A stretch of 32,000 nt of DNA from Anaerosoma tenue (GCF_023161965.1 NZ_JALNTY010000002.1:46018-78017), one strand, 5' to 3'. Positions 1 through 29,603 are shown, numbered from the stretch's first letter. Translations and numbers: made by a program. Notes: generated by a model not told the origin, from the letters alone.

Positions 1-1
1 C

Positions 2-2701
2 GCCTCCACCGACGCCGACGGCGACCCGGTCACCTATACCGTGTACCGCCTCCAGCAGCCGGTCACGGCCACGAACATCGGAAGCGCCACCGCAGTGGCG
101 TCCTCGGTCCCCGGAACGAGTGCCACAGTGAGCGCCCACGCCGACGAGATCGCGCAGTCGTACGTGTGGTTCTACGCCGTCAGGGCCAGCGACGGCACGA
201 ACCTGTCACTCGTGTCCAAGTCGATGGCGCCCAACCTCCACGGCTACCGCCTCAGTTCCGCCACCGTGAGCTGCACGCGCTGCCACGAGGTGCACGGTGC
301 ATATCCGGCCGACTGGGACTACACCTACGTCGACCTCTGCTACTCATGCCACGGCGCAACGTCTTCGGCGGATGCCGTGGGCGCCAAGAGCTCGCTCAAC
401 GTCCAGGCCGAGTTCGGCGACTACGACGGCCAAACGCAGCCCGCATCGGTGCACCGCAGCACGAAGATGGAGACCGACCGGACCGAGTGCGACGCGTGCC
501 ACAGCGCACATCGTTCGCCGTACTACTACGACAACTCCGGCAACTACGTGGCGGCCAGCAGCTACCGGAAGATGATCCGCGTGCAGACAGGCGAGGATGC
601 CGGCGGACCGCTCTACACCTACTACAGCCTCAACACCGACACGGCCGAGAACGCCGCGTTCTGCCTCGCATGTCACGGTGCGGACGCGACACCCATCGGC
701 TACGTCGGTGATGTCGACGACTACGCGGGTACCGGGGGCGACCACAACTCCGCCGGATATGACGCGGCAGCGCACGGCCCGTCGGTCGTCTACAGCAACG
801 ACCACGGGCGCACGAACGCAAGCGAGTACCCGCAGGTGCAGTGCCTTGCGTGCCACGCCAAGCACGCTTCGGCGGCAGACAAGCTCATCGCGTACCGCGG
901 CGACGACACGGCCACCAGCCCGAGCGGCACCTATGCCGAGGCCGAGCTCTGCTTCGCATGCCACAGCAGCAGTTCGAGCGAGAACAAGGTCGCAGCGAGT
1001 TACGCGGCACCGTTCTCCTGGAACGACCGCGACGTGGAGGCCGAGTTCGGCCGGGCGTCCACCCACCCAGTGAGCTCGTCGGCCACAGGCCGGTCGCTTA
1101 CGTGCGCGAGCTGCCACAACGTGCACAACGTGACCGAAGGCGGCACGGCCGCCTGGAACGTCGCTCGCGTGAGCACACCGTCGAACACGAAGGCGACGCC
1201 GGCCGACATGACCGCGTTCTGCCTCGGATGCCACACCACCACCCCGCCCTCGGCCACGATCGCAGCCGACACGCTCGTCCCGTACAGGATCGGCTTCAGC
1301 GACCAGAGCGCGGCGCCGTACTTCCCCGGGTGGGACAAGAGCGGTTTCGGCAGCCTCGGCGTTGGCGAGACCAACCACTACACGCCAGCGACGGGCGGCC
1401 AGCCGGCGCTCTGCAAGAACTGTCACGATCCGCACGGCTCGGACTATGAGCGGCTCGTAGCGTGGAGCGCCCCCACTGGCGCGGAGAAGGTCGGCGTATG
1501 GACGCCCAACAGTGGCACGCGTGAGAACGACTCGGCCACCGCGGCTGAGCTGAGCGCCGAGGAGAGCCTCTGCTACCAGTGCCATGGGAACGGCAGCGCC
1601 TATCCACAGGCACCCGGCGCGGCCGACGTGTATACGCCAGCGAACCCGGCGAGCGGCTCGAACAACACGCACGTCATGTCCGACTACTCGGGCCGTCACA
1701 GCGACACGGAGCTGGCGGCGGACCTCGGGGGAACGAACCGGCACAGCGAGTGCGTGGACTGCCACGACCCGCATGCAGCCAAGCGGGTGGGTGGGACCGC
1801 CACCCAGGATATGCTCGACACGAGCGCTCCCGGCAGTGCGATCTATGGCGCATGGGGCGTGGTACCCGATTACTCCGACCCCCTGCGGGACGGCACATCC
1901 AACCCCGGTACCTACAACTGGACGGCGCCCGCCACATACACCGATGTCCGTCTCACAGGTGCATCGACGGATATGGAAGCGCATCTGTGCTTGAAGTGCC
2001 ACAGCGGCAACACCACGCAACCGGCGGGACAGGGTGACACCGCTCGCGAGTTCAACCCCAGCAACTTCAGCGTGCACAACGTGCTCGGCCAGAGCGTAGG
2101 TGCGCAGGAGGCGTTCACGTACGTCGCCTCCGATGCGAACACCTACACCGACACATGGGAGTTCCCGAGCATCGGGGTCTTCCAGGCCTCCTACGATCAG
2201 AACACGATGCTCACGTGCACGAGCTGTCACACCAACGAGAGCGGCAACGCCAAGGGGCCGCACGGAAGCACGGTCCAGTGGCTGCTGGATCCCGCATACC
2301 CGACCGACTGGAAGACGTCATACCTCGTCGTGAGCAAGGACGACCCAGATGGGATGAACGGCACCCCCATCTGTCAGAAGTGCCACAATCTATACGGGGC
2401 CGGCGGTGTTGTCAGCAACTCTGCTCATGGGCGGGTCTCAAGACACGGCGGCTCCACCAACCCGTGCATCTCGTGTCACATCAAGGTGCCGCACGGATGG
2501 AAACGCCCACGACTTCTCGGCTACCAGAGTGACGACCCTGCGTACGCAGCGACCGAACTCAACGAGATCAGAGCGAACATCAGTCACACGAGAGATGCCA
2601 ACGGCAGTGTCGGGTGGGCGTCGGGCGACTGCAGCACCGACTATCTGGGCGCCTCGGGCTGTGGAGGTTCGACCCACAGCGATATCGCGGTCTCATGGTG
2701 A
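2..2701 (+). CDS. Multihaem c-type cytochrome, 5'-truncated by the window edge (15 CxxCH sites visible)
   Basis: The frame of ORF 41..2701 stays open back to nt 2 (ASTDADGDPVTYT...), so the gene begins upstream of the window. The translation has 15 CxxCH motifs (CTRCH, CYSCH, CDACH, CLACH x2, CFACH, CASCH, CLGCH, CKNCH, CYQCH, CVDCH, CLKCH, CTSCH, CQKCH, CISCH). The first 12 alternate CxxCHxxH with CxxCH(G/S/T). Stop TGA at 2699-2701. Confidence 0.9.
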   Translation, partial: ASTDADGDPVTYTVYRLQQPVTATNIGSATAVASSVPGTSATVSAHADEIAQSYVWFYAVRASDGTNLSLVSKSMAPNLHGYRLSSATVSCTRCHEVHGAYPADWDYTYVDLCYSCHGATSSADAVGAKSSLNVQAEFGDYDGQTQPASVHRSTKMETDRTECDACHSAHRSPYYYDNSGNYVAASSYRKMIRVQTGEDAGGPLYTYYSLNTDTAENAAFCLACHGADATPIGYVGDVDDYAGTGGDHNSAGYDAAAHGPSVVYSNDHGRTNASEYPQVQCLACHAKHASAADKLIAYRGDDTATSPSGTYAEAELCFACHSSSSSENKVAASYAAPFSWNDRDVEAEFGRASTHPVSSSATGRSLTCASCHNVHNVTEGGTAAWNVARVSTPSNTKATPADMTAFCLGCHTTTPPSATIAADTLVPYRIGFSDQSAAPYFPGWDKSGFGSLGVGETNHYTPATGGQPALCKNCHDPHGSDYERLVAWSAPTGAEKVGVWTPNSGTRENDSATAAELSAEESLCYQCHGNGSAYPQAPGAADVYTPANPASGSNNTHVMSDYSGRHSDTELAADLGGTNRHSECVDCHDPHAAKRVGGTATQDMLDTSAPGSAIYGAWGVVPDYSDPLRDGTSNPGTYNWTAPATYTDVRLTGASTDMEAHLCLKCHSGNTTQPAGQGDTAREFNPSNFSVHNVLGQSVGAQEAFTYVASDANTYTDTWEFPSIGVFQASYDQNTMLTCTSCHTNESGNAKGPHGSTVQWLLDPAYPTDWKTSYLVVSKDDPDGMNGTPICQKCHNLYGAGGVVSNSAHGRVSRHGGSTNPCISCHIKVPHGWKRPRLLGYQSDDPAYAATELNEIRANISHTRDANGSVGWASGDCSTDYLGASGCGGSTHSDIAVSW

Positions 2702-2854
2702 ATGCGCGGAGCCTCCCGGGGAACCAAGCGGGCACTCGTCGATGAGGCGCTGAACCGGGAGACCAGCTGACGTGTTGACGCTCTGACTCGGCAAGGTTTT
2801 CGCAAGATGTGGGTAAGGTTGTTACGCTACCATCGCTGCGACGGAAAGGATGCG

Positions 2855-4069
2855 ATGCGCGCTCGCTCGGCACGACGTATGGTACGCGGTGGGGTCATCC
2901 TCATCGCGGTTGCCGCACTCCTCGCATCCCCGGCCTTCGCGGCTCCCTCTGCCTCGACCACCACCACCCCGGCCCCCGACCCGCCCGCCGCACCATCAGT
3001 ACCGACCACTGGCAGCCCCATACCCGAGCCCACCGACCAGATGACCGCCGAGTTCCGCGCACGACTCGCGGCAAAGCAGGCCGAACTCGACGAGCTTGAG
3101 GCGCAGCTCGACGAACTCGACCGCGAGCTGGCCATCGCGGCTGAGGCGTACAACAAGGCGATGCTCGATCTCGAGGCCACCACTAAGCGGCTCGAGACCA
3201 CCAGGGCCGATCTTGCCAACGCCGAGCTCGCATACGAGCTGCAACAGGACACGCTCTCCGACCGCGCACGCGACATCTACCGCGGCGGCGAGCTGTCTAC
3301 TCTCGACGTGCTGCTCGGCTCCAAGTCGATCTCCGACTTCATGGCGCGCATCCGATTCCTCCGCGCGATGGGCGAGAACGACGCCTCGATAGTGGCGGCG
3401 CTCGCCGCCCAGCGCGACATGATCGCAGTGGCCCAGCACGCGGCCGAGGAGGACGAACTGCGCGCCCGCTCACTCGAGTTCGAGATGCAGGCCCGTCAGA
3501 TCGAGGTCATGCTGCGCATCCAGGAACGAGAGGCCCTGCTTGCCAGCACGCAGACCGAACTGCTCGAGCTGCTCGACGACCTGGCGGAAGTGCGCCAGAT
3601 GGCCGAGGCCGAGTTGTTGCGGGACGTGTTGTCCGGAGCGAACAAGGCCGGTATCGTCGTCGAGCCGGGGTCGCCGGTGGAGACCGCGCTCGCGTATCAC
3701 GGGGTGCCCTACCTCTGGGGCGGTGAATCCCCTCGTGGCTTCGACTGCTCCGGACTGCTCCTCTACGTGATGCGGCAGCATGGCGTGAACCTCCCGCACT
3801 ACTCCGGCTCGCAGTTCCAGCTTGGCGAGAAGGTAGCGCCGTCGGCGCTCCAGCCCGGCGACGCGGTCTTCTTCGGCTCGCCGGTCTACCACGTGGGTAT
3901 GTACGTGGGTGCGGGCTACTTCATCCACGCGCCCCGTACCGGCGATTTCGTCAAGCTCTCGCGGCTTGCCGATCGCAAAGACTACGCGGGCGCACGGCGG
4001 TATGATTGGGAGTACCGAACCTCGCCGGTCACCGGCGCGGTATCGGACCCGGCGGAGGCCGTCCGGTAG
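2855..4069 (+). CDS. Secreted NlpC/P60 (C40) peptidoglycan endopeptidase with a long N-terminal coiled coil
   Basis: ATG at 2855 is preceded by GGAAAGGA (2843-2850). Signal peptide MRARSARRMVRGGVILIAVAALLASPAFA. About 250 aa are heptad-like and Ala/Glu/Leu-rich. The C-terminus has the NlpC/P60 signature GVPYLWGGESPRGFDCSGLL ... YHVGMYVG ... IHAPRTG. The ORF-track start at 2807 looks like an upstream extension. Confidence 0.9.
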   Translation: MRARSARRMVRGGVILIAVAALLASPAFAAPSASTTTTPAPDPPAAPSVPTTGSPIPEPTDQMTAEFRARLAAKQAELDELEAQLDELDRELAIAAEAYNKAMLDLEATTKRLETTRADLANAELAYELQQDTLSDRARDIYRGGELSTLDVLLGSKSISDFMARIRFLRAMGENDASIVAALAAQRDMIAVAQHAAEEDELRARSLEFEMQARQIEVMLRIQEREALLASTQTELLELLDDLAEVRQMAEAELLRDVLSGANKAGIVVEPGSPVETALAYHGVPYLWGGESPRGFDCSGLLLYVMRQHGVNLPHYSGSQFQLGEKVAPSALQPGDAVFFGSPVYHVGMYVGAGYFIHAPRTGDFVKLSRLADRKDYAGARRYDWEYRTSPVTGAVSDPAEAVR

Positions 4070-4112
4070 CGTCCTCGCCGCTGTGCCGCTGACGACAGGG
4101 CTCGGAGGACGC

Positions 4113-5555
4113 ATGAAGGATCTGATCGCAACAGCCCTCGAAGCTGCCAACGCGGCCGGCGCCACGTATGCGGACGCTCGAGTGGTTGAGACGCGCCACG
4201 AACGACTCTCCGTGCGCACCGGCCGGGTGGACGGCGTCGAGTCGGGCGAATCGCTCGGCATCGGCATTCGGGCGATCGCGGACGGCGCCTGGGGATTCGC
4301 TGCGACCTCGGACCTTTCCACCAACGGCGTCACCTCAGCGGCACGCGAGGCCGTGGCGCTCGCGCAGGCGGCGGCCACGACTGCCCGGCGCCCGGTGGCC
4401 CTGGCGCCGGTGGACGCGTACACCGACACCTGGACCGGACCGTGCGTGACCGACCCCTTCACCGTGTCGCTCGACGACAAACTCGCGCTGCTGCTGTTGG
4501 CGGACGATGTCCTCCGCGCCGAGGCCGCAGTGCGTGTGACCAGCACGAGCATGAACTTCCTCGCGGTGCGTAAGGTATTCGGCTCCACTGAGGGGTCGCT
4601 GATCGAGCAATCCTACGTGGAGTCGCAGGCCGGGCTCACAGCGTTCGCGATCGGCGACGGAGAGATGCTCCCGCGCTCGTATCCCAACAACCTCGGCGGA
4701 CAGGCCGTGCAGGGTGGATGGGAGGCTATCCTGGCGCTCGACCTGCCGGGTCACGCCCCACGCGTAGCCGAGGAGGCGACCGCCCTCCTGAGCGCGGCCC
4801 CATGTCCGGCGCGGGAGACGACGCTGATCATCGACGCTTCACAGGTGGCGCTCCAGATCCACGAGTCGATCGGGCATCCCACGGAGCTCGACCGCATCCT
4901 CGGCGATGAGGCGGCCTTCGCGGGCACGTCGTGGGTGGGCATCCCCGATCTCGGCACGCTCCGCTACGGCTCGGAGCAGGTGACCGTGACCTCTGACGCC
5001 ACGATTCCCGGGTCGATAGGTTCGTTCGGGTACGACGACGAGGGCGTGCCAGCACAGCGGGATCACCTGATCACCAACGGGGTGCTCACCGGATTCCAGA
5101 CGTCGCGAGAGTCGGCTCTGGCGATCGACCGCACCTCGAACGGGTGCATGCGTGCCGACGGATGGCAGCGTCAACCGCTGATCCGGATGACCACCGTAAG
5201 CCTGGAGCCGGGCGAATGGGCGCTCGACGACCTGATCGCTGACACAGACGACGGCTTCTACTTCGAGACGAACAACTCCTGGTCGATCGATGACCGCCGC
5301 CTGAACTTCCAGTTCGGGTGCGAGATCGGCTGGGAGATCAAGAACGGCACACTCGGCCGTATGGTGAAGAACCCCAACTACACAGGGATCACCCCGGAGT
5401 TCTGGGGCTCGTGTGACGCGGTCTGCAACCGCGACCACTGGCAGGTGTGGGGGATCCCCAACTGCGGCAAAGGCGAGCCGATGCAGGTGGCGCATGTGGC
5501 GCACGGAGCGGCTCCCGCAAGATTCAGGAACGTCCGCGTGGGGGTGGCCCGATGA
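4113..5555 (+). CDS. tldD: TldD-family metalloprotease
   Basis: ATG at 4113 follows GGAGGA (4104-4109). N-terminus MKDLIATALEAANAAGATYADARV... The HExxxH zinc motif is present (IHESIGHPTELD). The ORF-track start at 3909 overlaps the upstream gene and is unlikely. Confidence 0.9.
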   Translation: MKDLIATALEAANAAGATYADARVVETRHERLSVRTGRVDGVESGESLGIGIRAIADGAWGFAATSDLSTNGVTSAAREAVALAQAAATTARRPVALAPVDAYTDTWTGPCVTDPFTVSLDDKLALLLLADDVLRAEAAVRVTSTSMNFLAVRKVFGSTEGSLIEQSYVESQAGLTAFAIGDGEMLPRSYPNNLGGQAVQGGWEAILALDLPGHAPRVAEEATALLSAAPCPARETTLIIDASQVALQIHESIGHPTELDRILGDEAAFAGTSWVGIPDLGTLRYGSEQVTVTSDATIPGSIGSFGYDDEGVPAQRDHLITNGVLTGFQTSRESALAIDRTSNGCMRADGWQRQPLIRMTTVSLEPGEWALDDLIADTDDGFYFETNNSWSIDDRRLNFQFGCEIGWEIKNGTLGRMVKNPNYTGITPEFWGSCDAVCNRDHWQVWGIPNCGKGEPMQVAHVAHGAAPARFRNVRVGVAR

Positions 5556-6892
5556 GACGCTCGCTCGAGGAGATACGCACCATCGCCAATCGCGCCGCGC
5601 ACATGACCCGGGCCGACAGCGCCGAGGCGGTGGTCATCTCGAGCATCTCGGCGCTCACGCGCTTCGCCGGCAACCGCATCCACCAGAACGTGACCGAGAC
5701 CGACTCGCAGCTGTCGATCCGTGCCGTTCTCGGGACACGCACCGGCGTGGCAAGCACCAACCGGCTGGACAACGAAGCGGTAGCGCGCTGCGCTTCGGCC
5801 GCCGTTGATGCCGCACGGCACGCCCCGAAGGACCCTGACTTCCCCGGGCTCCCCAAGCCCGCTCCGCTCTCGATCCCCTCCCGGAGCCTGTCGCTCCTCT
5901 CGATGTACGACGCCGCGGGACGCGCTCGCGCTGCCGCAGAGATCATCCAGCAGTCCGACGCGCGAGGGCTCGTGGCCGCAGGCACCGTTTCGGTCAACGA
6001 CTACGCGGTGGCCATAGCCAACACGCACGACGTTGACGCGTCGATGCAGACCGACGAGCTCCGGGCGACCGTTCTGGCCATGGGCGAGGGCGGAGCGAGC
6101 GGATGGGGGTCGTTCCTCGGCCGTGACGCAGGAACGTTCCTGCCGGCACAACTGGGGAGCAGCGCGGCAACGCTGGCCGAGCGCTCGGCGGGCGCCGGCG
6201 ACCTTGAGCCCGGCACGTACACCGTGGTGCTGGCACCGGAAGCGGTCGCCGACATCCTCGACTTCCTCGGCTATCTTGGTTTTGGCGCGAAGGCCTTTGC
6301 CGAGGGGAGCTCCTTCCTCGTCAACGCGCTGGGGACGCGCGTGGCAGACACGTGCGTGAGCATCTACGACGATGCCCTGTCGCCCGCAACGATCGGCATA
6401 TCGTTCGACTACGAGGGCCAACCGCGCCGCAGGACTCCGCTGATCGAGGGCGGTGTGGCGATCGGACCGGTGACCGACTCGTACTTCGCCGCCAAGCTCG
6501 ACCGGCCGGACACCGGGCATGCGCTTCCCGCGCCCAACCCGTACGGACCGCTTCCGCTGAACATCGAGATGCAGGCCGGAGACGCGACACTGGACGAGAT
6601 GATCGGCTCGGTGGAACGGGGCGTCTACGTAACGCGCTTCCACTACGTGAACGTCGAAGACCCGATGAAGGTCGTGCTCACCGGGATGACTCGCGATGGC
6701 ACGTTCCTCATAGAGAACGGACGCCTTTCGACCCCGGTCCGCAACCTGCGATTCACTCAGAGCGTGCTCTCCGCGCTCTCCGATGTCCGCGCCATCGGCT
6801 CGAAGCGGCAACTCTGTGGAGGCGAGGGTGGCGCTGCGCTCGCGCCGGCTCTGCTCATCGGCCACTGGGCGTTCACCGGACAGACCGGCTGA
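5552..6892 (+). CDS. pmbA: PmbA/TldE-family protein (TldD partner)
   Basis: ATG at 5552 overlaps the tldD stop (ATGA at 5552-5555). The protein is TldD/PmbA-like throughout but lacks HExxxH, as expected for PmbA. Confidence 0.88.
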   Translation: MRRSLEEIRTIANRAAHMTRADSAEAVVISSISALTRFAGNRIHQNVTETDSQLSIRAVLGTRTGVASTNRLDNEAVARCASAAVDAARHAPKDPDFPGLPKPAPLSIPSRSLSLLSMYDAAGRARAAAEIIQQSDARGLVAAGTVSVNDYAVAIANTHDVDASMQTDELRATVLAMGEGGASGWGSFLGRDAGTFLPAQLGSSAATLAERSAGAGDLEPGTYTVVLAPEAVADILDFLGYLGFGAKAFAEGSSFLVNALGTRVADTCVSIYDDALSPATIGISFDYEGQPRRRTPLIEGGVAIGPVTDSYFAAKLDRPDTGHALPAPNPYGPLPLNIEMQAGDATLDEMIGSVERGVYVTRFHYVNVEDPMKVVLTGMTRDGTFLIENGRLSTPVRNLRFTQSVLSALSDVRAIGSKRQLCGGEGGAALAPALLIGHWAFTGQTG

Positions 6893-13695: not shown

Positions 13696-15866
13696 GTTCC
13701 CGCTCCTTCCTGCCGCGCGCTGTCGGCATGCAATACCAGTGTCTTCGATCTGAAGGCGAACGGCGCATAGGCGCGGCCCCCGCCCTCGTAGAACTTGCCA
13801 AAGAACTCGACGAACTGCAGACGCGCAGGATGCACGAACGCGCTCAGCAGGTTGATCACCACGTTGAACACATGGCCCACCACGAAGATCAGCGCGGCGA
13901 AGACCATGATGACCACGCCGCCGACGATGGCCCCGCCGCCCTTGTCGAACATGCTGCCGGCACCGGCGCCCACGAGCCTGGCGAGCAGGTTGAACACCAT
14001 TCCCACGAGCGTTGCCGAAAGCGCGAGCGCAGCGAGCCGCGTGTAGCTCAGGATATCGCCGATCAGCGATGAGAGGCCGTACACGGCGTAGGCTCCGCCG
14101 AGCATGGCCGCCACCACCCGCCGGGTCGCCTTGGACACGACCATTCCTGCGACCGTGATCGCAAGCAGCATCCAGCCGAGGGGGGCGCTCCAACCCAACG
14201 CCAGCGAGAGCAGCCAGCCCACGAACACCGCAAGCCACGCGGCGCCCAGCCCCTTGTCCCACGCGGGCGCTTCCACCTCACGCAGCGCGACGTCGATCGC
14301 ACGGCTCTTGCCGAGCGCGGTGAGGCCCAGCCCCAGTACGATGGCCACCGTGGAGAGCGACGGCACGAGGACCGCCACCGCGATCGCGGCGAACAGCACC
14401 ACCGTTGACGCCTGATCGAAGACGGCCGACGCCCAGTCGCCTTTGCGCGCGAGATTCCAGGCCGAGATCAGCACGCCGAAGAGCACCTGCAGCACGCCGA
14501 GCGCGATGGAGAACACCAGGAAGGTGGGCAGCTCCTCCATCGGGTTGATGAGCCGGAGACTCTCGAGAAGCGGCGGCAGCTCGAGGTCCCATGCGAAGTA
14601 CGAGCCGAGCGCCACCCCGGCGAACATCGCACCCACCCCGCCCACGATGAAGAGGTCCATGAGCTTCTTAACGCCCGGAGCCACATCGAGCTTCTTCTTG
14701 ATGAGCCACGACGCCACGATCAGCATCAGCCCATAACCCACATCACCGATGCAGATACCGAAGAAGACCCAAAAGAACGGCGCCAGCAGCGGTGTGGGAT
14801 CCAGCTCGTCGTACCGCGGCCGGCCGTAGAGGTCGGTCAGCACCTCGAATGGACGCAAGAATCTCGGGTTCTCGAGCTCCACCGGCGGCGTGTCACCTGG
14901 GCCGGGGTCCTCGTAGCTCACGTCAAGCGTGTCAGCGAGCGGCTCAAGCGCCTCGTCCAGGACGCCCCGGCGCTTGGCGCTCACCCACCCGGTGATGACG
15001 AAGGCCCGCTCCGTCGTCCCGAAGTGTTCGCGGACGGTCACCGCTTCAAGGTCCGCGTCGATGGCCTCCACGAGCGCCACGGCATCGTCGTGGTACTGCT
15101 CGGAGAGGGTCTGCGCCTGCCCGTCGAGAACCGCGAGCCGCTCGTCTATCTCGGCTATGCGCTCGAGCGCGACCGCCCGTTCCTCTGCGGGGTAGTCGTG
15201 GAGCCCGGGGAACTTCACGTCGGCGAAGTCGGTGCCCGCAAGCACCGCGCGCACCTCGTCCACCACAGTACGATGCGCCATCACGACCCATGCCGTCTTC
15301 CCGCCCACCGAGGCGAGTTCCTCCACCGAGACGTGCGGCGTGATCTCGCGGAGCATCTCCCTGGTCGCACAGCCCTCAGGCGAGGGGATCACACCCGTGA
15401 ACAACGCCACATGCTCGGTGCCCACCCATCGGCCGATCTCGAGCCGGAGCGGCTCCCATGCAAGCAACTCGTGCGCAAGGGCCTGGAGGCGGCCCCGCTC
15501 GCGGCGCAGTTCCGCCATCGAGTCGGCGACCCCCTGGCACTGCTCGTAGACGTGCAGGAGCGTCGTGTCCACCTCAAGAGCGGCGAACTCATCCTCCGAG
15601 AGATGCAGCTTCTCGGATATGAACGAAGAGAACGGCTGGTCGCTCGTGTGATAGCGCCGCAGGAAGTCGCGGATGAAGACGGCGTCGGCGCGATACTCCT
15701 CGAGACGCCTCACCTCAGCGGGATCGGGCGAGGCGTACGCCGGCGCCGTACCCTCGGCCACCGTCTCGATATCGAGCGCTCCGGCGCGCCGCATGCGCTC
15801 GACAGCCTCGTCGAGCGCCGACGTGTGGCCGAGCACGGTGACGCGCAACATACGTGCGACAGCCAC
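13692..15866 (-). CDS. atpI: V/A-type ATP synthase subunit I (membrane a-subunit)
   Basis: A soluble N-terminal half is followed by a polytopic C-terminal half. The likely start is GTG at 15866 (VAVARMLRVTVLGH...), 4 nt after the upstream stop. ATG at 15851 is the alternative. The ORF-track start at 15980 overlaps the upstream gene. Confidence 0.88.
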   Translation of the reverse strand: MAVARMLRVTVLGHTSALDEAVERMRRAGALDIETVAEGTAPAYASPDPAEVRRLEEYRADAVFIRDFLRRYHTSDQPFSSFISEKLHLSEDEFAALEVDTTLLHVYEQCQGVADSMAELRRERGRLQALAHELLAWEPLRLEIGRWVGTEHVALFTGVIPSPEGCATREMLREITPHVSVEELASVGGKTAWVVMAHRTVVDEVRAVLAGTDFADVKFPGLHDYPAEERAVALERIAEIDERLAVLDGQAQTLSEQYHDDAVALVEAIDADLEAVTVREHFGTTERAFVITGWVSAKRRGVLDEALEPLADTLDVSYEDPGPGDTPPVELENPRFLRPFEVLTDLYGRPRYDELDPTPLLAPFFWVFFGICIGDVGYGLMLIVASWLIKKKLDVAPGVKKLMDLFIVGGVGAMFAGVALGSYFAWDLELPPLLESLRLINPMEELPTFLVFSIALGVLQVLFGVLISAWNLARKGDWASAVFDQASTVVLFAAIAVAVLVPSLSTVAIVLGLGLTALGKSRAIDVALREVEAPAWDKGLGAAWLAVFVGWLLSLALGWSAPLGWMLLAITVAGMVVSKATRRVVAAMLGGAYAVYGLSSLIGDILSYTRLAALALSATLVGMVFNLLARLVGAGAGSMFDKGGGAIVGGVVIMVFAALIFVVGHVFNVVINLLSAFVHPARLQFVEFFGKFYEGGGRAYAPFAFRSKTLVLHADSARQEGAGT

Positions 15867-15870
15867 GATA

Positions 15871-16176
15871 TCAGCCCGCCAGCTCGTCCAGGACGGCCGC
15901 CACCGCGACCGGAAGGCGACCCTCGGCCGCTCGGACGTACTCATCACGGGCCGCCGCAGCCTCCGCCTCATACCGCTCACGCTCGGCGTGCGCGTCCGTC
16001 AGGATGGCCGCAGCCTTCGCTTCCGCGTCCTGGCGGGCCGCCGCGATCGTCGACCGCCTGACGTGGTCGGCATCCGATGCGGCCGCGCGCTCAAGCGAGT
16101 TCGCGTGCTCGCGCGCTTCGGCGACGATGTCCCGGGCACGTTCCTCGACGCTCAGGATGCGTTCGAGCTTTTCCAT
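15871..16176 (-). CDS. Small coiled-coil V/A-ATPase stalk subunit (G/H-like, NtpF-like position)
   Basis: 101 aa. MEKLERILSVEERARDIVAEAREHA..., Ala/Glu/Arg-rich and helical. It is the first gene of the operon, directly upstream of atpI, as in ntp/atp V-type operons. Confidence 0.7.
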   Translation of the reverse strand: MEKLERILSVEERARDIVAEAREHANSLERAAASDADHVRRSTIAAARQDAEAKAAAILTDAHAERERYEAEAAAARDEYVRAAEGRLPVAVAAVLDELAG

Positions 16177-16326
16177 GGGAACCCCATCACCGCTTTCACG
16201 ATCGCGTCATCGCCGTCACACGGTCCGAAACGCGATGACAGCGTATGGATCGCTACAGTATAGTACGCGAAACACCCCTCAAGACCCTGCCGTTCGCCCC
16301 CATATTCGAACCGGATACGTCTGCAT

Positions 16327-17190
16327 ATGCCCTTTAGTGACAACCGCGACCCATACCGCCCGCCGGCGCGCTCGCGTCACACCCGCCGCACACGGCGGGG
16401 CCGGAGCGGCCGCAGGGTGCGCCCCCGCCGGTCGCCATATCCCGCCCTTACCGCGGTGGTTCTCATCGTCGGCCTCGCACTCATCCTCACGGCGACGCTC
16501 TGGAGGGGCGGCTCCGACGAGCCGGGCCCGATGACCGCGGCCGTTGCGTCAGTGGCGGCCGAGCCCGACCGCGACCCTACCCCTCGATTCGCCCGTGTCG
16601 GCGCCACGGAGATGCGCCTCCCCGTGGACCCCTCCGCCATGACAGCCCTGGCGTTCCACCAGGCATCCGGCGACTCGGCGCTTCCGATCACCTCGCTCGT
16701 CCCGGATGCCGACATGGAGCTGGCCGCCGAGCTCCAGGCGGTCCCGCCTGTGGAGGAGGCTGCGGACGTGCCGGACGACGTGCTGGGCGGCGTGTGTCTG
16801 CGGCTCTGGCGCTCGAACCGCACAGGCATGCCGGACACGGCGGCCGACATCGGAGCCGATGCCGGGACCGATGTGTACTCTCCTGTGACCGGCACCGTTG
16901 TAGAGGTGCGGCCCTACCTGCTCTACGACGCCTACGACGACTTCGAGATACACATCCGGCCGGACGGTCGTGATGACGTGGACGTCGTGCTCATCCATGT
17001 GGACGACGTGACCGTGCGCGCCGGTGACGCCGTGGTGGCCGGTGTCACGCGAATCGCGGCGGTCCGGTCGATGTCGGACAAGATCGAGATCCAGCTTGGC
17101 GGCTACACCGACAACGGCGGCGACCACGTGCATATACAGGTGAACGAGATCGGCGCCGCAGGCGAACTCGACGCGGCAGGTGAATCGTAG
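16327..17190 (+). CDS. Membrane-anchored protein with a LytM/M23-like C-terminal domain (non-canonical metal site)
   Basis: Arg-rich N-terminus (RSRHTRRTRRGRSGRRVRPRR), then a TM helix (ALTAVVLIVGLALILTATL). The C-terminus reads DIGADAGTDVYSPVTGTVVEV ... VLIHVDDVTVRAGDAVVAGVTRIAAV ... GDHVHIQV, resembling the M23 fold. HxH is retained, but the His of HxxxD is apparently replaced (DTAAD). There is no clear SD sequence. Confidence 0.6.
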   Translation: MPFSDNRDPYRPPARSRHTRRTRRGRSGRRVRPRRSPYPALTAVVLIVGLALILTATLWRGGSDEPGPMTAAVASVAAEPDRDPTPRFARVGATEMRLPVDPSAMTALAFHQASGDSALPITSLVPDADMELAAELQAVPPVEEAADVPDDVLGGVCLRLWRSNRTGMPDTAADIGADAGTDVYSPVTGTVVEVRPYLLYDAYDDFEIHIRPDGRDDVDVVLIHVDDVTVRAGDAVVAGVTRIAAVRSMSDKIEIQLGGYTDNGGDHVHIQVNEIGAAGELDAAGES

Positions 17191-17193
17191 CCG

Positions 17194-17412
17194 CTACTCT
17201 TCGCCCGAGCCTTCGTCCGCCCTGGCGATGAACCCTCGGAACCGCCGGTCGAAATCGTAGCGCTCCAGGCGCACCTTCCGGTCGCACCCCACGCAGCGAA
17301 GGCCGATGTCCATGCCGAGCTTCGTGATCTCCCACTCGTTGGCCCCGCACGGATGCGGCTTCTTGAGGCGCACCACGTCGCCGATGCGTATGGGCGTGAT
17401 AGGAACAGCCAT
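17194..17412 (-). CDS. DUF951-family small protein
   Basis: GDVVRLKKPHPCGANEWEITKLGMDIGLRCVGCDRKVRLERYDFDRRF matches the DUF951 pattern (KKPHPCG ... C.GC). ATG at 17412 has GGAG 5 nt upstream. GTG at 17418 is the alternative start. Confidence 0.8.
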   Translation of the reverse strand: MAVPITPIRIGDVVRLKKPHPCGANEWEITKLGMDIGLRCVGCDRKVRLERYDFDRRFRGFIARADEGSGEE

Positions 17413-17516
17413 GCTCACTCCGTGCTCGGTCGCGTCAGCAGGGCAGGGCGGGTAGAGTATACCGCGTGATACCCGTGGATCCGCCCGGCGTCGCGCCGGG
17501 TGGCTGGAGGAGCCCC

Positions 17517-17792
17517 ATGAAGACCAGAGCCGTGCTCTCCGTTCTCGGCGCCGACCGCGTCGGCATCGTCGCCACCATCGCCACCGCTCTCGCGGAACTC
17601 TCAGTCAACATCGAGGATATCCGCCAGACGATCCTCTCGGACGTGTTCTCGATGACGATGCTCGTCACCATCGACGAGGACATACACCCCTTCGAAGACA
17701 TCCAGGCGCGCCTTGCCGAGGTCGCCGAGGCAATCGGCATGCAGGTGACCCTCCAGCGCGAGGACGTCTTCCGCTTCATGCACCGCGTGTAG
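17517..17792 (+). CDS. ACT-domain protein (UPF0237-like)
   Basis: ATG at 17517 follows [44 protein letters not shown]... is a single ACT domain of 91 aa, immediately upstream of a UPF0210 gene, which is the usual pairing. Confidence 0.85.
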
Positions 17793-17838
17793 GCAGCCCA
17801 CACGTCCTGTCGATCGTCCGCCGCTCCTGGAGGTCCCC

Positions 17839-19206
17839 ATGCTCCACATCAGTCCCGAGGAGATCGCCGAGACCCTGCTCATGGTGCACCAGCAGCACCT
17901 CGACATCCGTACGGTCACGCTGGGAGTGTCGATCGACGACTGCGCCGCCGACTCAACGCAGGAGATCTCGGCGCGGCTCTACGAGAAGGTCACCCGGGCC
18001 GCTGAGCGTCTCGTGCCGGTGGCCGAGCAGATCGAGCGCGAATACGGGATACCGATCCGCAACAAGCGCATCTCGGTGAGCCCGGTCGCGGGCATAGCGG
18101 GCCGCTGCGCCGGCGAGGACCTCACGCCGATCGCCGAGGCGATGGACCGCGCCGCCGAGACCGCCGGCGTCGACTTCATCGGCGGCTTCTCGGCGCTCGT
18201 CCACAAGGGCGTCGGCGCGGCGGATGACGCGCTGATCCGGTCGATCCCCTCCGCCCTGGCGGCCACGCAACGCGTCTGCTCATCAGTGAACGTGGCCTCC
18301 ACGCGCGCGGGAATCAACATGGACGCCATCGCCCGCATGGCGCGCACCGTCAAGGAGACTGCGGCGCTCACGGCCGCCGATGACAGCATCGGCTGCGCCA
18401 AGCTCGTGGTGTTCGCCAACATGGTGGAGGACAACCCCTTCATGGCCGGCGCCATGCACGGGCCCGGAGAGGCAGACGCCGTGGTGAACGTAGGGATCTC
18501 GGGGCCGGGCGTGGTACGCGCGATCATCGCGGCGCTCCCCGATGAGGCCGACCTCACCGCTGTGGCCGAGGCCATCAAGGCCACCTCCTTCAAGATCACG
18601 CGGGCGGGCGAGCTGGTGGCCCGTGAAGCGGCCCGCCGCCTCGGTGTGGCTATGGGTATCGTCGACCTATCGCTCGCCCCCACCCCCGCCGAGGGCGACA
18701 GCGTCGCCGAGATCCTGGAGGCCATGGGCGTGGAGCGCTGCGGCGCACCGGGCACCACGACCGCGCTCGCGCTCCTCAACGACGCGGTCAAGAAGGGTGG
18801 CGCCATGGGCACCTCGTCGATCGGCGGGCTCTCCGGCGCGTTCATCCCCGTGTCCGAGGACGCCGGCATGGTGCGGGCCGTGGAGGACGGCGCGCTCAAC
18901 CTTGAGAAGCTCGAAGCGATGACAGCCGTGTGCTCGGTTGGCCTCGATATGATCGCGATACCCGGCGACACGCCTGCCGAGACGATCGCGGGCATCATGT
19001 CCGATGCCTGCGCCATCGGCGTCATCAACAACAAGACCACGGCAGCGCGGTTGATCCCGGCCGTGGGCAAGGCGGCCGGCGACCACGTGAGCTGGGGCGG
19101 CCTTCTCGGCGCTGCGCCGGTGATGGACGTATCCCGGTGGAGCAGCGCGAAGCTCATCAACCGAGGCGGCAGGATGCCCGCGCCGCTGGGCAGCCTGCGC
19201 AACTGA
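17839..19206 (+). CDS. UPF0210/DUF711-family protein
   Basis: 455 aa. [35 protein letters not shown]... ...[13 protein letters not shown]... GGAGG lies upstream of the ATG. Confidence 0.85.
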
Positions 19207-26199: not shown

Positions 26200-27651
26200 T
26201 CAATCGCCCTGCTTGAGCCATTCGTCCATGGCACGAGCGGCGCGCTTGCCGGCCCCCATAGCGAGGATGACCGTCGCCGAGCCCGTGACGATGTCGCCAC
26301 CCGCATACACGCCGGGCTTCGATGTGGCGCCATCCTCATCGGCGAGGATGTAGCCCCGCTTCGAGAGTTCGAGATCGGGCGTGGTCTTGGGCAGCAGCGG
26401 GTTCGCCCGCGTGCCGAGCGCCATGACCACGGTGTCGCAGTCGATGGTGACATCGGCGCCCATCACGCACACCGGCGCTCGCCTGCCGCTCGCGTCGGGC
26501 TCGCCGAGCTCCATCGTGTTGGCCACGATGCCGGTGACCCAGCCGTCCTTGCCGAGGACCTCCACCGGCGAGCACAGCATCTTGAACTCGATGCCCTCCT
26601 CGCGCGCGTGGTGCACCTCTTCCTTGCGCGCCGGCATCTCCGCCTCGGTGCGGCGATAGACGAGGAAGACCTCCTCGGCGCCAAGGCGCTTGGCGGTGCG
26701 CGCGGCGTCCATCGCCACGTTGCCACCGCCCACCACGGCCACCTTGCGGCCGCGCCACACCGGTGTGTCGGCCGAGGGGAACTCGTATGCGCGCATCAGG
26801 TTCACACGCGTGAGGAACTCGTTGGCCGAGTAGACGCCGTTGAGGTTCTCGCCGGGGATGCCCAGGAACATCGGCAGACCGGCGCCGTTGCCGATGAAGA
26901 CGGCGCCGAAGCCTTCCTCGGTCATGAGTTCGTCGATGGTGTACGTTGCGCCGATCACCACGTCGCACCGGATCTCCACGCCCATCTCCTCGAGCAGCCC
27001 CACCTCGGCCTGGACGATGTGCTTGGGCAGGCGGAACTCCGGGATGCCGTAGGTGAGCACGCCGCCTGTTGCATGCAGGCTCTCGAAGACCGTGACCGCA
27101 TGACCGTAACGGCGCAGCTCGCCGGCGCACGCCAGGCCGGCGGGACCGGAACCCACCACCGCCACACGCTTGCCGCTGTCCGCGCCCACCACGGGTACGC
27201 AGCGGCCCTCCAGCTCGCATGCCAGGTCGAAGTCGCCGAGCCAGCGCTCGAGGCGGCCGATCGCCACGCTCTCGCCCTTCTTGGCGAGCACGCAGCGGGC
27301 CTCACACTGCTCCTCCTGCGGGCAGACACGGCCGCATACGGCCGGAAGGGCGTTCTTCTCCTTGAGCACGGCCACGGCCGCATGGTAGTCGCCGTCGATC
27401 ATCTCGCCGATGAACGACTTGATGTCGATGTTCACCGGACAGCCCTCGATGCAGGTGGGATTCCTGCACTGCAGGCAGCGGCTCGCCTCGGCCCGGGCCA
27501 TCTCCTCCGTGTAGCCGAGTGTCACTTCGTCGAAGTCACGCGCGCGCTCAGAGGCGTCCCGCTCGGGCATCGGGGTCCGCGGGATGCGGGCCGGGCGGTG
27601 CCGGGGCTTCTCGTCCGGCGCAGGGCCGCCGGTGCCGTCTACTGATGGCAT
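26200..27651 (-). CDS. nfnB: NfnB / GltD-family NADPH-dependent oxidoreductase (glutamate synthase small-chain-like, SudA-like)
   Basis: ATG at 27651 (MPSVDG...). Two Fe-S cluster motifs (CLQCRNPTCIEGCP, CGRVCPQEEQCEARC). Dinucleotide-binding VAVVGSGPAGLACAGEL and VAVVGGGNVAMD. The ORF-track start at 27954 lies inside nfnA. Confidence 0.88.
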   Translation of the reverse strand: MPSVDGTGGPAPDEKPRHRPARIPRTPMPERDASERARDFDEVTLGYTEEMARAEASRCLQCRNPTCIEGCPVNIDIKSFIGEMIDGDYHAAVAVLKEKNALPAVCGRVCPQEEQCEARCVLAKKGESVAIGRLERWLGDFDLACELEGRCVPVVGADSGKRVAVVGSGPAGLACAGELRRYGHAVTVFESLHATGGVLTYGIPEFRLPKHIVQAEVGLLEEMGVEIRCDVVIGATYTIDELMTEEGFGAVFIGNGAGLPMFLGIPGENLNGVYSANEFLTRVNLMRAYEFPSADTPVWRGRKVAVVGGGNVAMDAARTAKRLGAEEVFLVYRRTEAEMPARKEEVHHAREEGIEFKMLCSPVEVLGKDGWVTGIVANTMELGEPDASGRRAPVCVMGADVTIDCDTVVMALGTRANPLLPKTTPDLELSKRGYILADEDGATSKPGVYAGGDIVTGSATVILAMGAGKRAARAMDEWLKQGD

Positions 27652-28478
27652 GAGCACTCCCTCTGGTATTCCGCGTCCGCCAGACGCTCGTCGTCGTTGT
27701 AGACGCGCTGGCGGCTCATGAGCTCTTCGAAGTCCACCGCATGTCCGTCGAAGTCCGGACCGTCCACGCAGCCGAACTTCGTCTCCCCGCCCACGGTCAC
27801 ACGGCATGCGCCGCACATGCCCGTACCGTCGACCATGATCGGGTTCAGCGAGACCACGCAGGGGACATCGTGCTCCTTGGCGGTGGCCACGCAGAACTTC
27901 ATCATGATCGCCGGGCCGATAGCCATCGAATGGTCGATGGCGCCGCCCTCGCACAGCTCCTTGAGCGGGGCCGTCACAAGGTCCTTGCGCCCGGCGGAGC
28001 CGTCATCGGTGCAGATGATCAGCTCGTGCAGCGGGAGGGCCTTGAACTCGTCCTCCAGGATGACCAGGCCGGCGTTCCGCGCACCCACGATCACGGTGAC
28101 CTCGTTGCCCGCCTCGGCCATCGCGCGCGCCACCGGGTATGCGACAGCGGTTCCCACGCCGCCGCCCACCACGGCCACACGGCCGAGACCCTCCACGTGA
28201 GTGGGGATGCCGAGCGGGCCCACCACGTCGGCCAGGGAGTCGCCCACGCCCATATGCGAGAGCTTGTGAGTGGTCTTGCCCACGGTCATGAAGATGAACC
28301 GGATCCAGCCCTCGTCGGCGGACCAATCGGAGAACGTGAGCGGGATGCGCTCGCCATCCTCATCGATCCGGAGCATCAGGAACTGGCCTGCTTTGGCCTT
28401 GGCAGCGATCGCGGGCGCCTCGACGCCCATCTCGAACACGGCGTCGGACAGCTGGCGGGCGTGAACGATGGGGAACAT
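27639..28478 (-). CDS. nfnA: NfnA / SudB-like FAD and [2Fe-2S] ferredoxin-NADP reductase-type subunit
   Basis: ATG at 28478 follows GGGAGGA. MFPIVHARQLSDAVFEM... ...RIPLTF... ...VDGTGMCGACRV...CVDGP. It overlaps the nfnB start by 13 nt. Confidence 0.85.
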   Translation of the reverse strand: MFPIVHARQLSDAVFEMGVEAPAIAAKAKAGQFLMLRIDEDGERIPLTFSDWSADEGWIRFIFMTVGKTTHKLSHMGVGDSLADVVGPLGIPTHVEGLGRVAVVGGGVGTAVAYPVARAMAEAGNEVTVIVGARNAGLVILEDEFKALPLHELIICTDDGSAGRKDLVTAPLKELCEGGAIDHSMAIGPAIMMKFCVATAKEHDVPCVVSLNPIMVDGTGMCGACRVTVGGETKFGCVDGPDFDGHAVDFEELMSRQRVYNDDERLADAEYQRECSCHQ

Positions 28479-28556
28479 CGGTCCTCCCGGGGTTGGTACA
28501 CTTACAGGACGGCACGACAAGTGCCGACCAGTATACCCGTCCACGTGAGGCTGACA

Positions 28557-29603
28557 ATGCGACGTATCACGGCTGTTCTGCTACTTATCGGGCTGATAGC
28601 GCTTCCCGGGTGCGGCGAGGCCGGACCGGTCGAGGTGAGCCGTGAGGCGCTCGGCACGGTGGTCACCATCACGGCCTACGGAGACGACGATGCGGCGGTC
28701 CGGCAGGCCGTGGATGACGCGTTCGCCGTCATGGCCGAGGTCGTCGCCCCGCTCAACGCGTACGAGCCCGAGTCCGAGATCGCGGCGTTCAATCGCCAGC
28801 CCTACACGCTGCAACCACTCCCGCCGCGTTTCGTGGACGTGCTCGATGCGATCGACCGCCTCGATGTGGCCGACGCGTTCTCGCCCTTCCTGATGTCGGC
28901 ATCGGGCCTGTACGGTTTCGAGGGATCCCAGACCATCCCACCCCCAGACGACCTGGAGCTCGCTCTCTCGGCCGCTGACGGCTTCGTGCGCGCCGATACC
29001 CACAACGGCGTGTTCGCCCGTCTCAAGACGTCTGACGCCCGCCTGGAGCCCAGCGGCGTGCTGGCCCCGGGTCTTGATGCGAGCGGCGCGGCAAAGGGGC
29101 TCGCGCTCGACGCGGCCCGCGAGTCGCTCCGCGCCAGCGATGCGATCACCGCGGCGCTGATAAGCTCGGGCAGCAGCACGGTCACGCTCGGCACGAAGCC
29201 GAACGGTGAAGCCTGGCGTGTGGGCATCGAGGATCCGCGGGATCCGGAGAGCGTGATCGCGGTCTTCACCTTCGAGGGGGAAGGTGCGCTCTCCACCTCG
29301 GGCGACTACCAGCGCTACTTCGAGTCCGGCGGCATCCGCTACCACCACATCCTCGATCCGGCTACCGGAGAGCCGGCGAGGGGCGTCCGCTCGCTCACCG
29401 TGGCAGGCGCGTCGCTCACCGGGCTCGAGTCGGACATCCTCTCCACGGCGCTGTTCGTGCGCGGCGTGGACCGGGCGGCCGGATACGCTTCTGCCGAAGG
29501 CGTCGCGCTGCTGGCGGTGGACGACGAGGGGCGGACACATATCGTGCCCGCCCCTGAAGGATCCGGCCTGACGGTGGCGGAGGAGACTCCGGCTGCGCAG
29601 TGA
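28557..29603 (+). CDS. apbE: ApbE-family FAD:protein FMN transferase, predicted lipoprotein
   Basis: ATG at 28557. The signal ends in a lipobox-like LPGC (MRRITAVLLLIGLIALPGCG). ...LSTSGDYQRYFESGGIRYHHILDPATGEP... is the ApbE signature. The first ~270 codons of ORF 27741..29603 are an antisense artefact over nfnA. Confidence 0.88.
   Translation: MRRITAVLLLIGLIALPGCGEAGPVEVSREALGTVVTITAYGDDDAAVRQAVDDAFAVMAEVVAPLNAYEPESEIAAFNRQPYTLQPLPPRFVDVLDAIDRLDVADAFSPFLMSASGLYGFEGSQTIPPPDDLELALSAADGFVRADTHNGVFARLKTSDARLEPSGVLAPGLDASGAAKGLALDAARESLRASDAITAALISSGSSTVTLGTKPNGEAWRVGIEDPRDPESVIAVFTFEGEGALSTSGDYQRYFESGGIRYHHILDPATGEPARGVRSLTVAGASLTGLESDILSTALFVRGVDRAAGYASAEGVALLAVDDEGRTHIVPAPEGSGLTVAEETPAAQ

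Follow-up and report, generated by a model that had tools for sequence, protein, structure and literature searches.

The 32,000-nucleotide stretch of Anaerosoma tenue DNA analysed here (NZ_JALNTY010000002.1:46018-78017; referred to as the window and numbered from its first base) opens within the gene for a very large multihaem cytochrome. Frame +2 is open across window positions 2-2701 and encodes 899 residues followed by a stop codon. These residues include 32 Cys and 40 His and contain 15 CxxCH haem sites, whereas 2,000 shuffles of the same residues averaged 0.05 sites and never exceeded 2. The complete gene starts upstream of the window, with GAGGGGG ahead of the ATG at G000:C2:45848 and an N-terminus that is common to its orthologues. 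The gene and its product are organised as follows, with residues numbered along the full-length protein.

G000:C2:45848-48718, + strand: complete cytochrome gene, 956 codons; the ATG lies 170 nt before window base 1 (window coordinate -170)
Window 1..2701, + strand: in-window portion of the gene; codons 58-956 are bases 2-2698 and the stop codon is 2699-2701
Window -170 to -72, + strand: Sec signal peptide, residues 1-33 (MSSAHHH...LALPATAFA, cleaved before AAP); lipobox Cys absent
Window 2..235, + strand: visible part of an FN3 domain, residues 58-135 of a full ~38-135, from AlphaFold and Foldseek
Window 236..2179, + strand: six doubled-CXXCH units holding haem sites 1-12, from motifs, Pfam and NCBIfam matches and conservation
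Residues 136-207, 208-325, 326-412, 413-515, 516-628 and 629-783, + strand: bounds of the six doubled-CXXCH units
Residues 148, 220, 338, 425, 528 and 641, + strand: CxxCHxxH sites, from the motif scan
Residues 170, 278, 374, 464, 581 and 720, + strand: (L/F)CxxCH(G/S/T) sites, from the motif scan
Window 2180..2698, + strand: C-terminal three-haem module (sites 13-15) and conserved tail, from the sites and the alignment

An earlier annotation of the window, here called the sequence-only reading, had proposed at least 15 haems in a gene that continues upstream. The gene does continue, but an in-frame walk upstream of the window adds only 57 further codons; because the added codons supply the signal peptide and the first part of the FN3 domain without any haem site, the haem count is exactly 15 rather than a minimum. 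That reading would have counted the lack of any export signal against its own proposal, and a Sec signal peptide is present in the full-length protein. Residues 14-42, at the signal peptide, form the sole hydrophobic stretch of the cytochrome, and the cleavage site, AxA followed by A(T/V)P, is kept in the orthologues with a complete N-terminus. The 956-residue precursor is most likely exported through the Sec pathway and cut by signal peptidase after residue 33, as judged from these features. The mature apoprotein has a computed mass of 97 kDa and a computed pI of 5.1. The cytochrome lacks a membrane anchor, a lipobox, an LPXTG or C-terminal sorting signal, an SLH domain and a CWB2 domain. Additionally, the A. 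tenue genome encodes the maturation proteins ResB (PF05140) and CcsA (PF01578), with scores above the cut-offs and in several copies.

A motif scan bears out the claim that the first twelve of the 15 visible haem sites fall into six pairs. Specifically, within sites 1-12 a CxxCHxxH site is followed by an (L/F)CxxCH(G/S/T) site at an offset of 22-79 residues, and each doubled-CXXCH unit holds, beyond these two motifs, one more conserved His. Sites 13-15 (residues 796, 848 and 879) depart from this pattern. All 15 sites are invariant in 30 orthologues of ~950 residues that share 43-91% identity, while in an 81-sequence alignment extending down to ~30% identity the motif Cys and His residues are all at least 99% conserved. 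Nearly all of ~80 homologues compared have 15 sites. In the 81-sequence alignment, 20 His residues outside the motifs (137, 155, 208, 227, 305, 315, 345, 412, 432, 516, 535, 614, 623, 638, 648, 749, 811, 866, 888 and 949) are at least 95% conserved; no conserved Met and no conserved Lys, Tyr or Cys pattern of distal ligands were found there. With 20 conserved extra His and no conserved Met, every haem can be bis-His, leaving five His spare. These data imply low-spin, bis-His electron-transfer centres at all haems, with no catalytic site predicted. Recurring (A)EF...S-x-H-(P/N/R) elements, suggested by the sequence-only reading as a source of distal ligands, occur three times (F195..S206-x-H208, F406..S410-x-H412 and F741..H749) and are at least 90% conserved in the 81 homologues, although the first has a longer spacer than had been described.

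The C-terminus of the cytochrome (window 2615-2698, residues 929-956) follows the pattern W..C-x(3-10)-C-x(0-4)-H-x(6-8)-W(P)-COOH, in the form C-x10-C-x3-H in A. tenue. This tail is kept even in distant homologues; a Geomonas protein, for example, ends ...EHSSGGTGGEAW. Two orthologues carry a full CxxCH in the tail, which makes a sixteenth site, and several carry CxxCK (P0021, P0038, P0015, P0017 and P0027 were compared). The tail may be the remnant or variable form of a haem site, may form a disulfide loop that presents a distal His, or may serve in recognition.

Profile searches place the protein firmly among the doubled-CXXCH cytochromes, as had been proposed: PF09699 (Paired_CXXCH_1) scores 104.2 bits against a cut-off of 20.6 over 5 stretches, and TIGR01905 scores 75.3 bits against a cut-off of 25.2 over 6 stretches. 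The pentahaem model for domains II/IV of MtrC/MtrF, PF22113, also passes (61.3 bits against 30, 5 stretches), a likeness at the domain level only. Membership of the DmsE/MtrA family is not indicated, since TIGR03508 reaches 56.4 bits against a cut-off of 192.2.

The first residues of the window had been taken for the end of an Ig/FN3-like domain, and structure prediction agrees. In a first AlphaFold model, made with 30 close orthologues, residues 40-135 form a seven-strand beta-sandwich with a predicted local distance difference test (pLDDT) score of 74-90. Foldseek pairs it best with 1k85, an FN3 domain from chitinase A1 (E 3.6e-5, TM 0.75, root-mean-square deviation 2.4 Å, 31% identity), and 21 of the 22 matches at E ≤0.001 are of FN3 type. 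The cytochrome also gives weak profile matches to FN3 chains in the PDB; the Pfam fn3 models gave no match at E ≤1. The haem core, on the other hand, reached a mean pLDDT of only 42 with the 30-orthologue alignment. With the 81-sequence alignment, to which Bacillota homologues had been added, the core (residues 135-956) is predicted with a mean pLDDT of 87.1 and a predicted template-modelling score of 0.85. Coil dominates the predicted core, which otherwise has a few hairpins and, at the haem motifs, short helices.

The confident core model has no detectable solved relative. With this model, Foldseek returned no PDB chain below E 5 and no multihaem cytochrome; because Foldseek performs poorly on coil-rich haem proteins, a relative is undetectable by this route and the novelty of the fold is not proven. 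A profile of the 30 orthologues matched none of the PDB chains at E ≤0.01 and gave ten weak matches at E ≤10, which are FN3 domains and chance cytochrome fragments. The best hit, 7tfs ('Cytochrome c', 232 residues), has a non-significant E of 0.089.

Upstream of the cytochrome gene, and ending 25 nt before its start codon, lies an open reading frame for a putative membrane-anchored partner.

G000:C2:45082-45822 (the same as L003:19065-19805; window -935 to -195), + strand: partner gene, open reading frame of 246 residues

The partner begins with a membrane helix, continues with a linker of ~85 residues that is acidic and rich in Pro, and ends in a conserved domain of ~130 residues of unknown fold, which matched neither Pfam nor, by profile, the PDB chains. 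Two Arg precede the membrane helix, a pattern suggestive of an N-in, C-out topology. An alignment of four orthologues contains 36 invariant positions. Among 146 genomes of the order, the partner profile matches 34, and each of these also holds a close orthologue of the cytochrome. Of the 33 other genomes with a partner gene, 30 place it directly upstream of the cytochrome orthologue, in the same orientation. The pair also occurs in the obligate Fe(III) reducer Parvivirga hydrogeniphila. The outward-facing domain of the partner has one invariant His, within a conserved S-x-H-T-I (residues 211-215), and it is conceivable from the sequences that this His cross-ligates with the cytochrome, which has five spare conserved His.

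Downstream, the cytochrome gene is followed by a wall hydrolase gene.

Window 2807..4069, + strand: PcsB-type coiled-coil and NlpC/P60 wall hydrolase, from Pfam and synteny

In five loci with 43-55% identity, the order is partner, cytochrome, PcsB-type hydrolase, TldD and PmbA, with V/A-ATPase genes on the opposite strand. The sequence-only reading had pointed to cell-wall hydrolases of Gram-positive type in the lineage, and the gene for one is next door; it is not, however, particular to the cytochrome. We considered the hydrolase as a dedicated wall-opening enzyme for the cytochrome and rejected this, as it is found in 145 of the 146 order genomes as opposed to 34 for the pair. Its presence with or without the cytochrome marks it as a housekeeping gene, and since TldD/PmbA and the ATPase genes also hold their positions, its adjacency reflects backbone synteny around a conserved chromosomal slot. 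The gap between the cytochrome and hydrolase genes showed neither a promoter-like site on the + strand nor a hairpin resembling a terminator. A standard reductase complex nearby, the other possibility that had been raised against the proposal, is likewise not seen: Pfam searches of the neighbours of the cytochrome revealed no reductase subunit or complex.

The cytochrome family is broad, and its 15-haem core extends beyond the order. Within the order, 70 of the 146 genomes have a cytochrome match at E ≤1e-20, as do 33 of the 43 genomes of the same family. The nearest orthologue shares 90% identity across the entire protein. Named records of the cytochrome family come mostly from metagenome-assembled genomes (MAGs) of Coriobacteriia and Anaerosomatales. 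The whole 15-site core can also be aligned with proteins from Candidatus Geothermocultor and from MAGs of the Bacillota (Thermincola ferriacetica, Carboxydocellales, Thermoanaerobacteraceae and Thermaerobacter), with which it shares 26-33% identity. These distant 15-haem homologues align at profile positions ~3-780 of 792, with the same order of sites and similar spacing. The last 5-8 haems alone are found in Elusimicrobia, Nitrospirota, Ignavibacteria and Bacteroidota; the C-terminal three-haem module, together with the haems before it, thereby extends to diderm phyla, and the module recurs in further large cytochromes from the order. A profile search of a 1.84-billion-protein library at E ≤1e-30 yielded 1,593 cluster representatives, some of more than 4,000 residues. 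A second, word-based homologue search, run with an alignment, gave almost no additional homologues.

The Bacillota homologues have 900-1900 residues and carry an N-terminal membrane segment, an Ig-like/FN3 stalk and the core at the C-terminal end, a layout that is typical of surface proteins. The Thermincola ferriacetica MAG homologue has seven Big_1 domains, and another homologue has seven fn3 domains. These proteins share the core with the A. tenue cytochrome but, unlike it, place the core behind long Ig-like/FN3 stalks. At the Thermincola locus, the one Bacillota locus examined, the partner and the hydrolase neighbourhood are absent, and genes for an NHL propeller and an Ig-rich protein are found instead. 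A literature search retrieved no experimental work on the 15-haem homologues from Bacillota and other Actinomycetota. The Carboxydocella protein CFE_2242, described as a '15-heme cytochrome of unknown function' (PMC6085454), may be a homologue.

Within the Coriobacteriia, many forms are interrupted between sites 6 and 7 by an insert of ~520 residues (range 190-1050) that contains no haem site; one of them is the 1414-residue orthologue of Parvivirga hydrogeniphila. In A. tenue, sites 6 and 7 are only 51 residues apart, compared with 500-1050 in the long forms, so that its cytochrome is the insert-free form. The insert-bearing long forms of Anaerosomatales otherwise share with the A. tenue protein the 15 haem sites, the signal peptide and FN3 domain, the upstream partner and the genomic slot before the PcsB-type hydrolase, TldD/PmbA and V/A-ATPase genes. 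In a FastTree phylogeny of the core, the insert state switches at least 8-10 times; the insert is absent in the Bacillota clade used as outgroup and in the deepest Actinomycetota branches, and A. tenue falls within a mostly insert-free clade.

Comparison with known systems reveals likeness in motif and proposed job rather than in overall homology. The protein shares its motif unit with MtrA/DmsE and other doubled-CXXCH proteins of Geobacter and Shewanella. From MtrA in the MtrCAB structure, this unit is assumed to arrange haems as tightly packed pairs along a chain. Distinct from MtrA/DmsE, the A. tenue protein has 15 haems and an FN3 domain, separates the two sites of a pair by much longer loops (17-75 residues) and lacks a porin context. 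With MtrC, OmcA and MtrF of Shewanella it shares the PF22113 match, a surface or extracellular multihaem character (predicted for A. tenue) and sites of bis-His type. Those proteins, in contrast, have 10 haems, beta-barrel domains I/III and a lipoprotein anchor, none of which is found in the 15-site A. tenue protein, and the latter belongs to a monoderm host in which a porin partner is lacking. The task suggested for the A. tenue protein matches that of ImdcA, PdcA, CwcA, OcwA and OmhA of Thermincola and Carboxydothermus, for which a multihaem relay from the membrane through thick peptidoglycan to the surface of a monoderm cell has been modelled (PMC7911101, PMC6703420, PMC7829351). Homology to these five is nevertheless not detectable, and haem number, fold and the dedicated membrane partner differ. 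OcwA appears neither among the ten weak PDB profile matches at E ≤10 nor among the Foldseek matches, Foldseek being weak on coil-rich haem proteins.

The biology of the host bears directly on the function of the cytochrome. A. tenue M08DHB, a subsurface bacterium, has a Gram-positive wall by electron microscopy and pili-like appendages, and grows with sulfur and thiosulfate (PMC9686372). The Gram-positive type of the organism, which had been surmised from the window, is therefore borne out by microscopy as well as by wall-binding CWB2 proteins encoded close to the cytochrome gene. Its genome was reported to encode 18 multihaem cytochromes, and the cytochrome gene described here is not among the gene clusters discussed in that work (PMC9686372). 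Our own count gives 19 open reading frames with at least 4 CxxCH sites. At least 6 of the A. tenue multihaem cytochromes have an N-terminal membrane helix and are possible electron donors. The other cultured member of Anaerosomatales, Parvivirga, reduces Fe(III) and does not reduce sulfur compounds; pili-like appendages are seen in both strains, in Parvivirga only with ferrihydrite (PMC9686372).

We consider it reasonably probable that the cytochrome is a tethered relay that passes respiratory electrons through or onto the Gram-positive wall. In this model, system II machinery of the ResB/CcsA type would load 15 covalent haems onto the exported protein on the outer face of the membrane. The mature protein of ~106 kDa would then consist of one FN3 domain followed by a compact core of six doubled-CXXCH units and the three-haem end module. 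Lacking an anchor of its own, it would be held at the envelope by the partner encoded immediately upstream, would accept electrons from membrane-anchored multihaem cytochromes and would hand them to an extracellular or wall-side acceptor. This acceptor might be elemental sulfur or polysulfide in A. tenue and Fe(III) in Parvivirga. That homologous cores sit at the end of long Ig stalks fits a surface role. We regard the protein as an uncharacterised variant of the Gram-positive wall or surface electron-transfer cytochromes, with electron transfer across the thick wall as its putative function.

Several observations weigh against this relay. A. tenue M08DHB reportedly reduces neither ferrihydrite nor anthraquinone-2,6-disulfonate (AQDS) (PMC9686372), so that Fe(III) extracellular electron transfer of the classical kind is not at work in the conditions tried; candidate acceptors in this strain would instead be insoluble sulfur, polysulfide or another mineral. 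Respiratory quinones were not detected in either cultured strain of Anaerosomatales (PMC9686372). The profile search of PDB chains and the Foldseek search detected no sequence or fold relation to any characterised electron-transfer cytochrome, and the functional analogy would accordingly be one of motif-level families and architecture. In addition, it is gene adjacency that suggests an interaction between the partner and the cytochrome.

The growth physiology of A. tenue suits a different explanation, in which the cytochrome is a wall-side ('pseudo-periplasmic') redox enzyme or an electron donor for thiosulfate, polysulfide, tetrathionate or sulfite, with no conduit outward and with electrons ending at one haem or at a membrane-near reductase. 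The strain grows by thiosulfate and sulfur reduction and not by iron reduction (PMC9686372), and multihaem cytochromes with kinship to surface reductases act on sulfur compounds in other Gram-positives (PMC10376724). The CxxCK-like or extra CxxCH motif in the tail of several orthologues, together with the five conserved His beyond 15 distal ligands, could also be read in this way. Yet in A. tenue itself the tail reads C-x10-C-x3-H and no conserved catalytic-type site is seen; there is no conserved Lys, Tyr or Cys ligand pattern, and His residues suffice for 15 bis-His haems. The PDB profile and Foldseek searches detected no sequence or fold likeness to NrfA, Otr, MccA or OcwA-type enzymes, a reductase subunit is not encoded nearby, and homologues with the core at the tip of long Ig stalks suit a surface role better. 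Moreover, the pair is equally conserved in Parvivirga, which reduces no sulfur compounds. We therefore judge a sulfur-compound enzyme or donor to be unlikely. The failure of A. tenue to reduce Fe(III) or AQDS despite ~18 multihaem cytochromes, for which defective clustering has been suggested (PMC9686372), could alternatively mean that the gene is a silent or dispensable leftover of iron-reducing ancestry in this strain, and the pair is found in only 34 of the 146 order genomes. The frame is intact, however, all 15 sites and the 20 further His are kept with no sign of decay, identity to the nearest orthologue is 90% from end to end, and the partner gene is intact and adjacent, which makes a relic very unlikely.

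The pili-like appendages raise a further alternative, namely that the cytochrome is the subunit of a cytochrome filament (nanowire) that constitutes these appendages in both Anaerosomatales, with a conserved His such as H949 ligating a haem of the next subunit. The appendages are present on both strains, in Parvivirga only with ferrihydrite (PMC9686372), and the protein is secreted, lacks an anchor, has surplus conserved His and a conserved His...Trp tail at its extreme C-terminus, and has a predicted fold that is rich in coil, as in known nanowire cytochromes. Against this, no significant match to OmcS, OmcE or OmcZ was obtained (best 7tfs, E 0.089; none with Foldseek), and the big stalks and inserts of many homologues are hard to fit into a filament. 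A subunit of ~106 kDa would also be two to three times the size of any nanowire subunit known to us. We hold a nanowire subunit, too, to be very unlikely. A bolder version of the relay, which we hold to be decidedly unlikely, treats the 15-haem core and the partner as an unrecognised envelope device, common among single-membrane bacteria, in which the acidic linker would thread the peptidoglycan and keep a self-contained haem wire within the wall or at its surface; taken furthest, the cytochrome would polymerise through the spare His and the His...Trp tail into the pili-like appendages. If true, the polymerising form would be the first Gram-positive cytochrome nanowire, on a fold without a solved relative.

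To our knowledge, electron passage across the thick wall of single-membrane bacteria has been outlined in no more than two or three Firmicutes, and the electron-transfer proteins of these organisms are unrelated to the family described here. It has been known since 2022 that Anaerosomatales hold many surface multihaem cytochromes (PMC9686372), and a wall or surface electron-transfer role had been proposed for the lineage before. The present analysis documents a version without the insert in a cultured type strain, traces the 15-haem core into Bacillota, where it stands on Ig stalks, provides a confidently predicted structure that has no detectable solved relative, gives the size of the family, and sets aside two candidate associates, the hydrolase and an ApbE protein encoded farther downstream. 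Because A. tenue M08DHB is a cultured type strain with the smallest, insert-free form, it offers convenient access for biochemistry and structure determination. An intact protein in a strain that does not reduce iron could, in addition, reveal non-iron roles such as extracellular sulfur reduction.

Related proteins vary further in size and gene arrangement. Giant relatives of 3,000-4,600 residues (P0142, P0145, P0183, P0207 and P0231) contain 7-20 separate stretches that match the core profile, and proteins with the doubled-CXXCH core multiplied in this way may hold many tens of haems. In some Bacillota, 15-haem genes occur as tandem pairs, as at L046:983-3715 and 3734-6583 of a Thermoanaerobacteraceae MAG and also in L043 and L045; the two L046 cores are near-identical (branch lengths 0 and 0.011) and probably stem from a recent duplication or from gene conversion. 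Two other A. tenue cytochromes, encoded on the - strand at G000:C1:804210-807884 (17 sites) and G000:C2:108877-112368 (14 sites), share only the C-terminal part, at 25-31% identity. The 17-site protein has a similar ...GCSGG..H......W end, and its gene adjoins ResB/CcsA maturation genes.

Farther upstream of the partner, a tRNA-Met gene is present, together with divergent genes for two wall proteins at G000:C2:39292-41715 (- strand) and ~41576-44185 (+ strand), corresponding to L003:13275-15698 and 15559-18168. Each of these wall proteins combines a right-handed beta-helix (DUF1565/NosD-like) with three CWB2 repeats, whose presence indicates that this member of the Actinomycetota uses CWB2 anchoring of the Clostridia type.

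Within the window, downstream of the hydrolase, the remaining features of note surround the ApbE gene.

Window 27741-29603, + strand: long open reading frame containing ApbE (ApbE domain residues 304-586; true start near 28.5 kb)
Window 26200-27954 and 27639-28544, - strand: GltD/NfnB-like and DHODB-type Fe-S pair, adjoining ApbE

ApbE had been thought to fit the same extracytoplasmic redox theme as the cytochrome. We dropped this link: ApbE lies 26 kb away on the + strand beside the NfnAB-like pair, and nothing detectable connects it to the cytochrome. The minus-strand open reading frame at window 28581-29540, which lies over ApbE, is a false frame. The adjoining GltD/NfnB-like and DHODB-type pair may correspond to the sulfur-reductase subunits mentioned for this organism (PMC9686372).

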